A stretch of DNA of 24,560 nt from IMG/VR virus record IMGVR_UViG_2563366883_000007; one strand, 5' to 3'. Positions 14,007 to 14,535 of the stretch are shown here, piece after piece (within the stretch, counting starts at the first letter, position 1; each line of letters begins with the position of its first letter). This stretch comes from a virus (lineage: Duplodnaviria; Heunggongvirae; Uroviricota; Caudoviricetes). The notes beneath the pieces were generated by a model. It was given only the letters and a program-made list of their open reading frames with translations, ran no database searches and had not been told where the DNA came from. The translations under genes were made by a program, and so were the position numbers.

Positions 14007-14120
14007 ATGACCACACAATATGGATTTTTTATCGATTCCAGCCGCTGTACTGGCTGTAAAACCTGCGAACTGGCGTGCAAAGATTTTAAAGTTGGTTACG
14101 TATCGTTTAAAATCAATTAG
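14007..14120 (+). pseudogene. ynfG: Truncated 5' fragment of ynfG (4Fe-4S ferredoxin subunit), disrupted by the inserted element
   Basis: AAGGAG Shine-Dalgarno, then MTTQYGFFIDSSRCTGCKTCELACKDFK (the first ferredoxin CxxCxxCxxxC motif). The frame then runs into unrelated sequence (VGYVSFKIN, stop) after about 28 codons. Confidence 0.85.
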
Positions 14121-14163
14121 ATAGCCCGTCATTTCTGCGCTCACACGTCCCAACATTGAAAAA

Positions 14164-14197
14164 CATGCAAAGCTTTGTAAGCCGATGCAAAGCTTTG
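14164..14197. repeat. Two 14-bp direct repeats (ATGCAAAGCTTTGT) spaced 20 bp apart, next to the ynfG/element junction
   Basis: Read directly at 14164-14177 and 14184-14197. The related TGCAAAG also occurs at the ynfG junction (about 14078-14084), and an inverted copy (AGCTTTGC) near 14355-14362. Confidence 0.6.
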
Positions 14198-14535
14198 TGT
14201 GTCTCACTTTTGTCCCAATACCAATCCGAATCCACCCTTTGTCATCATTGAGAAATGGCAAGGAAGAAAAGGATGTTACTGCACGATTTGACAAATCCGC
14301 CAGAGCTATCGCATACTGATCGCACTGAACAAATAAGCGGTCTCCGCACCCGATAGCTTTGCGGCTTTTTTATGCCTGCAATTTGGCATAGTTACATCCG
14401 TACAAAGGTCGGGTGGAGAGGCGTAATACAACACCCGCAAGGGGAATATGCCCAGAGCTTCTTATTTGGCTCAGTTGACACCCGACCGCCAGCTACTAAC
14501 TGGCGGTTATAAACTAAACAAATAAGGAGGTCATC

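Follow-up and report, generated by a model that had tools for sequence, protein, structure and literature searches.

In phage lambda, the X1 and X2 sites of the P arm are direct repeats that are about 20 bp apart, and these sites are located next to an Int arm-type site, in DNA that is rich in A/T-tracts and that is bent during excision. In the attP site of phage P22, one arm has three arm-type sites and the other arm has two, and DNase I footprints have reportedly been obtained for both the Int and the Xis proteins of this phage. A full-text literature search for descriptions of the P22 att site, for sequence motifs or for sib-like elements gave no usable result. The sequence considered here (the window, i.e., the whole stretch of 24,560 nucleotides that was analysed) contains one end of a prophage, at which the 14-mer ATGCAAAGCTTTGT was noted to be repeated. 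In the original prediction, made from the letters of the sequence, the spacing of these repeats was regarded as typical of recombinase arm-type sites, accessory-factor binding sites in a phage att region, or operator sites. The features of this region and their coordinates are summarized in Table 1, and their relationship to the lambda and P22 systems is described below.

Table 1. Features at the integrase-distal junction of the prophage and in the adjoining sequence (positions are those of the window)
Feature	Position	Strand	Basis or remark
Host ynfG 5' fragment	14008-14091	+	Matches K-12 ynfG to 14091; partial 4Fe-4S protein by PGAP
GCAAAGAT, candidate core-type (B) half-site of attB	14077-14084	+	Host sequence; overlaps TGCAAAG 14076-14082
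Identity core (overlap region) TTTAAAG	14085-14091	no strand	Common to attB, attP and both junctions
Integrase-module-specific P arm of ynfG-integrating phages	14092-14287	+	Sequence shared with 933W from 14288
Segment homologous to the P22/L/ST64T attP P arm and to DLP12 attR	14106-14223	+	DNA similarity
IHF-like site AATCAATTAGATA	14111-14123	+	Consensus scan, one mismatch to WATCAANNNNTTR; between core and first arm-type site
Core-proximal candidate Int arm-type site CACACGTCCCA	14142-14152	+	Similarity search; GTCCCA at 14147
48-bp spacer, four A-tracts with 10-bp phasing	14153-14200	+	Proposed Xis-binding/bending platform
Hairpin of the two repeat units with 17-bp stem, terminator-like	14163-14202	+	Folding, terminator scan
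14-mer copy 1, ATGCAAAGCTTTGT	14165-14178	+	Hairpin 5' arm; better conserved copy
14-mer copy 2, ATGCAAAGCTTTGT	14185-14198	+	Hairpin 3' arm
Distal tandem candidate arm-type pair GTCTCA-CTTTT-GTCCCA	14201-14217	+	11-bp period; starts 14201 and 14212
Separate module common to 933W-type phages, outside the att arm	14288-14535	+	Sequence comparison with 933W
sRNA-Xcc1	14407-14495		Within the 933W-type module

The Prophage Junction in ynfG

In the window, host genes from ydfI to ynfE-ynfF are followed by the first 84 bases of ynfG and then by prophage DNA, and the truncated ynfG ORF reads on into the phage sequence up to a TAG stop codon at 14118-14120. The identity to intact ynfG of K-12 and of about 5,000 other complete E. 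coli genomes reaches 14091, and the boundary between host and phage is at 14091/14092. The junction had earlier been placed near 14083, which is about 9 bp too early, and the heptamer TGCAAAG at 14076-14082 had been regarded as the exact point where ynfG homology ends, but the homology continues past it. As the identity runs to 14091, this TGCAAAG is host sequence; it is part of the ynfG coding region, is present in prophage-free strains, and does not represent a dispersed copy of the repeat core.

Because the window stops short of int, other genomes in which the junction sequence is identical were used for the other junction and the attP site. The int-side junction was taken from NZ_CP015229.1 (L005), whose junction on the window side matches at 100% over 651 bp, and the attP form was taken from a viral contig with a 13.6-kb locus (L096). 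When the window junction, the int-side junction of L005, the attP of L096 and the attB of K-12 were aligned, the 7 bp TTTAAAG were identical in all four sequences, a length that equals the size of the overlap region of tyrosine recombinases. The attB site reads GCAAAGAT-TTTAAAG-ATCTTGGC, with a 7/8 dyad about the core, the attP site reads GCAACAAC-TTTAAAG-TTGGTTAC, and both junctions are clean recombinants of these two sites. The GCAAAGAT half of attB may serve as a core site for Int. The resemblance between the host sequence TGCAAAGATTTTAAAG and TGCAAAGCTTTGTAAG (13/16) was also considered as a sign of shared core recognition by Int, but it was rejected because P22 combines these arm units with a tRNA core that is unrelated.

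The arm in the window corresponds to the P arm in lambda nomenclature, and the junction is thus of the attR type. The window contains the integrase-distal junction (attR in the lambda sense) of a 933W-like prophage that is integrated in ynfG. The first genes inside the element, which encode an AntA/P22_AR_C antirepressor (14536-15171), IbrA/IbrB-like proteins, a Panacea-domain protein and a giant LPD38 protein, are typical of the 933W-like (Sepvirinae) short-tailed phages. The prophage is a mosaic, no complete E. coli genome covers more than 68% of the region 14000-24560, and the arm was found in about 82 of the 5,426 complete genomes of this species. The noncoding region 14092-14535 is 100% identical, where covered, in Escherichia phage PhiR5_2, and 94% and 92% identical in 75/02 Stx and POCJ13, respectively; for the latter two, which are Shigella phages, integration in ynfG has been described (PMC5447701).

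Relationship to the P22-Type Phages

The Int protein encoded at the other junction is 387 aa long, contains a Pfam Phage_integrase domain and shares 71% identity with P22 Int over 377-379 aa (in L005 and in the attP-form contig L096). The Xis ORF, which is located upstream of int and overlaps its start, encodes an HTH_17 protein with 72% identity to P22 Xis over 116 aa. At the DNA level, the homologous segment of the arm (Table 1) is 82-85% identical over 117 bp to the integrase-distal attP arm of P22, L, ST64T, ST104 and others, and 73-77% identical to the DLP12 attR remnant, which about 3,200 E. coli genomes carry between envY and ompT. Alignment with related phages revealed the arm in P22, phage L, the DLP12 attR and many enterobacterial prophages, and the site belongs to the known and well-studied P22-type attP family. 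The arm travels with the integrase module and not with the downstream genes, which upholds the proposal that the repeats are part of a phage att region.

The attP site of the ynfG phages has the same layout as that of P22, consisting of one GTCCCA, a 48-bp spacer with two ATGCAAAG units and a tandem GTCCCA pair, and in both of them a second tandem GTCCCA pair is found inside the 3' end of int. In P22 a perfect IHF consensus site is present at the P'-side position equivalent to that of the IHF-like site listed in Table 1. However, the two systems differ in a number of respects. P22, DLP12 and the argU/thrW-integrating relatives have a tRNA target and a long identity segment, whereas the target here is the protein-coding ynfG with the 7-bp TTTAAAG. 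The two units of P22 are imperfect copies (ATGCAAAGCCTTGC / ATGCAAAGATTTGT), whereas those in the window contain exact 14-mers, and the module that in P22 is part of a P22-like genome is found here in a 933W-like (Sepvirinae) genome. In 75/02 Stx, POCJ13 and PhiR5_2, the arm is 100% identical over 14092-14290, although the prophage in the window differs from them further in; we know of no dissection of the arm sites in these three phages.

Candidate Arm-Type Sites for Int

The hexamer GTCCCA (or GTCTCA/GTCCCG) is present five times, in one orientation, in the attP sites of the ynfG phage, P22, L, L055 and L070. On the int-side arm, a tandem pair with an 11-bp period lies inside the 3' end of int, where it codes for VPNxSHS, about 100 bp from the core, and all four exact copies of GTCCCA in the 13.6-kb L096 locus are within attP. 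The core-proximal site CACACGTCCCA was identical in 4/4 arms recovered by similarity search (the window, P22, phage L and DLP12), and the equivalent of the distal pair in P22 is GTCCCA-TTTTT-GTCCCA. Two pattern scans detected further arms headed by CACACGTCCCA in Escherichia, Salmonella, Citrobacter, Enterobacter, Kluyvera, Pantoea, the Erwinia group, Serratia and Xenorhabdus, where this sequence is constant by construction since it is part of both search patterns. About one third of the matches from these scans were chance matches in unrelated, G+C-rich DNA, and they were removed based upon composition and context. The pattern-scan arms usually adjoin a tRNA 3' fragment, and the distal GTCCCA-type pair recurs in them, including those from the scan in which this pair was not specified. 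In the own arm of 933W, an analogous motif, TGCCCCAA, is present six times in tandem pairs.

The 14-mers could themselves be the arm-type sites that are bound by the N-terminal domain of Int, as they are direct repeats with helical phasing inside an att arm. However, no copy of the 14-mer within 3 mismatches was found near the int-side junction, and the only match at this threshold in 25 kb at the int side was a chance match 14 kb off. In addition, the 14-mer is not kept across the family, where other sequences take its place in relatives while GTCCCA recurs on both arms, and it is internally palindromic, which is unlike arm-type sites. The Int of L070 is 76% identical with the same N-terminus, yet the L070 spacer lacks the 14-mer and GTCCCA is kept. 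We regard an arm-type function of the 14-mers as very improbable. Since the 14-mer is missing from the integrase-side arm and GTCCCA is present on both arms, GTCCCA was assigned as the probable Int arm-type site, which agrees with the distribution of arm-type sites in P22 attP. The original prediction had named absence of the repeats from the other att junction as an observation that would count against it. This absence was observed and it speaks against Int arm-type sites, but it is no argument against an accessory-factor site, as such a site is to be expected on a single arm.

The 14-mer Repeats and the 48-bp Spacer

Two exact copies of ATGCAAAGCTTTGT, both on the + strand and with a distance of 20 bp from start to start, were confirmed in the window, and no others were found. 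With up to 3 mismatches, 10 matches were observed in the window vs 2.9 expected, and a count of 10 was reached in 0/100 shuffles. The repeat unit stretches to 20 nt (AAAAACATGCAAAGCTTTGT / AAGCCGATGCAAAGCTTTGT), over which the two units are 80% identical, and Tandem Repeats Finder reported no array at the 14-mers, as two copies score too low. The 14-mer is not present in the ynfFGH region of prophage-free strains, and the spacing of two helical turns (20 bp) is a property of the whole family of arms. The 14-mers are a real and non-random feature of the att arm.

A perfect palindrome of 10 bp, CAAAGCTTTG, is found within each 14-mer. Two such palindromic sites that are two turns apart would be compatible with the suggestion that the repeats are operators, at which a repressor would control the antirepressor gene next to them or some other promoter of the prophage. 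However, no promoter-like site overlaps with the repeats, the nearest one being at 14288-14317, and the arm goes with the int module, so that the gene downstream differs among phages sharing it: the neighbours are the antirepressor gene here, gtrA in P22 and the ompT side in DLP12. Additionally, 933W shares the region upstream of the antirepressor gene but lacks the 14-mers. A function of the repeats as operators is therefore considered to be very unlikely.

The spacer in which the 14-mers are located has a length of 48 bp in 13 of the 14 divergent non-P22-type representatives (49 bp in the other one), and this length is also found in the P22-type arms. Its A-tracts in the window are at 14159-63 (AAAAA), 14169-71, 14179-80 (within TAAG 14178-81) and 14189-91, the second and fourth of them being the AAAG sequences of the two 14-mers. 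Among 16 spacer representatives with pairwise identity <75%, adenine peaks at spacer positions 7-10, 16-18, 26-28 and 36-38, and the autocorrelation of the A-periodicity has z scores of 7.9 and 6.8 for 10 bp and 20 bp, respectively. In 12/14 of the non-P22-type arms, an offset of 10 or 20 bp is among the best for internal direct repeats.

The recognition region of Xis, ISRPTAxNWIRxGRLQATRK, is essentially identical in the lineages with 14-mer-type units and in L070, which has no palindrome, and the spacers of these Xis lineages share AT..AAAG...TG twice, 20 bp apart. The covariation between Xis and spacer could be compared in four cognate sets only, in all of which the Xis helices are near-identical. 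Three loci (L054, L071 and L083) that appeared to combine the same arm with a 41%-identical Xis were rejected as such, since their int-side arms carry other repeats (G[GA]CACAA), and they are non-cognate neighbours and not counter-examples. A search for related loci with the Int alignment yielded 80 near-identical prophage ends, most of which end at the int stop, and no new spacer types.

Based upon these comparisons, we infer which protein would bind where in the arm. Because the phased direct repeats are of fixed length, lie by the Int arm sites and are present in the integrase-distal arm only, the preferred reading is that the 14-mers and the spacer form a platform for the binding of Xis and the bending of DNA, similar to X1-X1.5-X2 of lambda, and to this we assign a probability of roughly 0.55. 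Of the possibilities raised in the original prediction, that of an accessory-factor binding site is thereby favoured. The array resembles the lambda sites in that direct repeats about 20 bp apart are found beside an arm-type site and only in the integrase-distal arm. It differs from them in that no sequence similarity is present, the Xis is a different and longer (116-123 aa) HTH_17 protein, and the array is located between arm-type sites, whereas the lambda X sites are between P2 and the core; the lambda sites also have no counterpart of the hairpin character seen here. Two points speak against a Xis platform. The P22/DLP12/ynfG lineage keeps the inverted-repeat character of the units better than the direct repeat, and phased A-tracts could act by intrinsic curvature with no protein.

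The latter can be extended to a reading in which no dedicated protein is involved, where the spacer would act by A-tract curvature or through a host protein (Fis or IHF, for example), and the exact identity of the 14-mers would result from a recent local duplication or conversion with no function of its own. The phasing of the A-tracts is the most widely conserved feature, the second 14-mer copy is degenerate in most relatives, and P22 recombination is reportedly independent of IHF in vivo, which was counted in favour of this reading. However, bases beyond the A-tracts are also conserved (ACATGCAAAG; AT..AAAG...TG), and we consider this explanation to be quite improbable.

The Hairpin Formed by the Two Repeat Units

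Due to the palindrome in each 14-mer, the two repeat units are complementary to one another. The + strand was predicted to fold with -22.7 kcal/mol (z -5.25) into a hairpin with 17 pairs, 5 of them G-C, and a loop of 6, whereas the corresponding values for the - strand are -16.7 kcal/mol and z -1.9. Across many genera, 30 distinct P22/DLP12/ynfG-type arms keep the hairpin in register, with 86.5% of cells paired vs 19-53% in slid registers. Three measures, namely the paired cells, the cells with a change on either side of the pair at once and the score for covariation, were each above 500/500 shuffles. Changes on both sides were observed at 5 pairs (e.g., CG to UA and CG to GC), a count that is not above the shuffle mean of 4.5. 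The arms of Pantoea and Biostraticola keep ACATGCAAAG...CTTTGCATGT while the second TGCAAAG is lost, and L225 likewise keeps the inverted repeat without the second TGCAAAG; this pattern is explained by a hairpin no less well than by protein sites arranged head-to-tail. A weak match to Rfam mir-19 at 14161-14204 (26 bits vs a gathering score of 50) was discarded, as it reflects the hairpin only.

These observations bear on the main rival explanation, according to which the primary function of the repeats is at the RNA level, as a Rho-independent and possibly bidirectional terminator or as an element like sib/tI of lambda. A terminator at this position would stop read-through from ynfEFG into the prophage on the + strand, or read-out from the prophage on the - strand. 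In circular phage DNA, the hairpin follows the int stop at a distance of 134 nt, on the far side of the core, and no other terminator-like site is found within 550 bp after int in the attP form. The scan of the + strand flags it as terminator-like with the tail CTCACTTTTG, its 17-bp stem is stable, and the record of phage L annotates a terminator on the same bases of the other strand, with which the scan agrees. The conservation of the hairpin in the 30 arms, with some double changes, is also in accordance with a terminator.

A number of other observations do not support a primary role of this kind. No hairpin (z ~0) is formed by TTAGAAAG, ATAGAAAG and similar spacers, as in L021, L029, L070 and their relatives, yet the hairpin-less arms still keep the 48-bp spacer and the A-tract phasing, and L070 has no terminator-like site near attP. 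The U-tract of the + strand tail, CUCACUUUUG, is offset by 5 nt from the stem, and many relatives lack it; on the - strand, the stem has only 10 pairs and is immediately followed by GUUUUUC. Pairs that are possible only as G.U occur on both strands, so that neither strand is favoured overall: they favour the + strand in the window, the DLP12-type arms and L010, and the - strand in P22, phage L, Enterobacter and Pseudocitrobacter. The count of pairs with double changes, given above, also weighs against a primary role in RNA, and the better conservation of the 5' arm of the hairpin relative to its 3' arm points to recognition of a specific sequence. Compared with tI/sib of lambda, the hairpin is similarly located on the int-sense strand past the core and is cut off from int by integration. 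However, it lies inside the arm between Int sites, is about 40 nt long and is not universal in the family, and no sign of RNase III processing was seen. On balance, a primary function in RNA appears unlikely.

A combination of the two functions may also be envisaged, in which the 48-bp spacer of the P22/DLP12/ynfG lineage would have a dual use, with one set of 40 bases acting as a DNA array for docking of Xis and bending and as an RNA hairpin, kept across genera by some compensatory changes, that acts against int-sense transcripts. We consider such dual use to be rather doubtful. If true, the hairpin would terminate or destabilise int-sense transcripts in the excised phage and would constitute a retroregulator of the sib/tI type inside the intasome-forming arm, and not beyond it, while in the prophage it would insulate against read-through from ynfEFG.

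Look-Alike Sequences Outside the Arm

Further copies of the repeat core that had been noted around the 14-mers are of different origins. An inverted copy, AGCTTTGC, does exist at 14355-14362, but it is part of another module and is unrelated to the repeats. The block containing it starts at 14288 and is found with 99% identity in 933W, VT2-Sakai and many Stx phages whose integrases and att sites are different; 933W possesses this block and lacks both the 14-mer and GTCCCA in its own arm. For the heptamer as a whole, 5 copies were seen vs about 3 expected for a 7-mer per window (an expectation by length), and the dispersed copies are thus not beyond chance. The two inverted repeats reported in the noncoding stretch are both present, and TATGCC-N8-GGCATA (14371-14390) and CCGCCAG-N7-CTGGCGG (14486-14506) fold better than shuffles, with z values of -3.1 and -5.2, respectively.

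Proposed Mechanism and Implications

Integration of the prophage into ynfG took place at TTTAAAG, with an Int/Xis module of the P22 family. In a mechanism consistent with the Xis platform, several Xis protomers would, during excision, bind cooperatively to the A-tract array on one face of the helix and bend the DNA, possibly with assistance from IHF at its candidate site, and the bend would return the distal Int-bound sites to the core. The array would then be a functional analogue of X1-X1.5-X2 of lambda, to which the hairpin from the complementary array halves may add a terminator function in this sub-lineage.

As site-specific recombination of the P22 type has already been well studied, these results open no new question. 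The site map derived here, which consists of the core, the IHF-like site, five GTCCCA-type arm sites and the spacer array, applies to the ynfG-integrating Stx-type phages of Shigella and E. coli. For the annotation of prophages, the present case indicates that short direct repeats which match exactly and lie close to the end of a prophage can represent both arms of one conserved hairpin, and that similar heptamers in their vicinity can be host sequence or can belong to another module.

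Candidate arm-type sites in 933W and other arms

The integrase-distal arm of 933W (AF125520.1, 61344-61670) contains, at positions 120-215 of this segment, six TGCCCCAA motifs. They form tandem pairs whose period is 11 bp, and one pair set is duplicated. The layout of these pairs is identical to that of the TGTCCCAA pairs in the P22-type arms, although the motif itself differs by one base. Among the arms in loci L009-L248, the distance from the proximal arm-type block to the last TTGTCCC is either 75 bp or 64 bp, values one helical turn apart, and which of the two applies depends on whether a tandem pair forms the distal site. 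Of the 14 representatives, 13 have an inner spacer of 48 bp. In the Xenorhabdus-type arms, GTTRC repeats are present in place of the A-tracts and the 10-bp phasing is retained.

In four IMG/VR contigs (L054, L071, L083, and L101), a P arm of the GTCCCA type, located at a tRNA gene, directly adjoins an integrase approximately 55% identical to P22 Int. The int-side arm repeats of this integrase are of the form G[GA]CACAA-N4-G[GA]CACAA, and the two arms are thus adjacent but non-cognate. Such neighboring arms probably originated by serial integrations or represent a remnant attR.

Sequences at the ynfG junction

The ynfG 5' fragment in the window runs on into phage DNA up to a stop codon at 14118-14120. 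At the other junction, in NZ_CP015229.1, the GTG start supplied by the phage has led to the annotation of the ynfG 3' portion as a complete gene for a reductase B subunit. As its product is missing the first Cys motif (CTGCKTCELAC), the encoded protein is probably non-functional. The inverted repeat at the window junction gives rise to symmetric promoter-like TTTAAA-17-TAAAAT matches on both strands, and it probably reflects simply the A/T-rich core together with IHF-site sequence.

Features at the ynfG junctions and upstream of ant
Feature	Location	Strand	Details
Inverted repeat GATTTTAAA / TTTAAAATC	window 14082-14114		perfect, 9 bp; spans junction, one half host, other half phage
Sigma-70-like promoter TTGACA-18-CATACT	window 14288-14317	+	10/12 matches
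sRNA-Xcc1 (RF02221)	window 14407-14495	+	full-length Rfam match, 69.1 bits (gathering score 53)
Hairpin CCGCCAG-N7-CTGGCGG	window 14484-14508		-15.5 kcal/mol, z -5.2
ynfG 3' part	L005 (NZ_CP015229.1) 15706-16257		phage-supplied GTG start (VSNNFKDLG...)

Predicted elements upstream of ant

The sigma-70-like promoter and the sequence shared with 933W start at the identical point. The promoter is followed at about 14343-14370 by a weak stem and a T7 run, which include the AGCTTTGC motif noted in the original prediction; together these elements could specify a short transcript, or the promoter could simply mark the start of the ant leader. Within the same shared module, immediately 5' of the antirepressor gene, lies the match to sRNA-Xcc1, a family originally reported from a Xanthomonas integron (PMC2996969) and mentioned in connection with APSE phages as well. 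Its closing stem (14407-15 / 14479-87) has about 3 nt in common with the CCGCCAG hairpin, which had been recognized in the original prediction, and the two may form alternative structures, for example, in an ant leader or attenuator.
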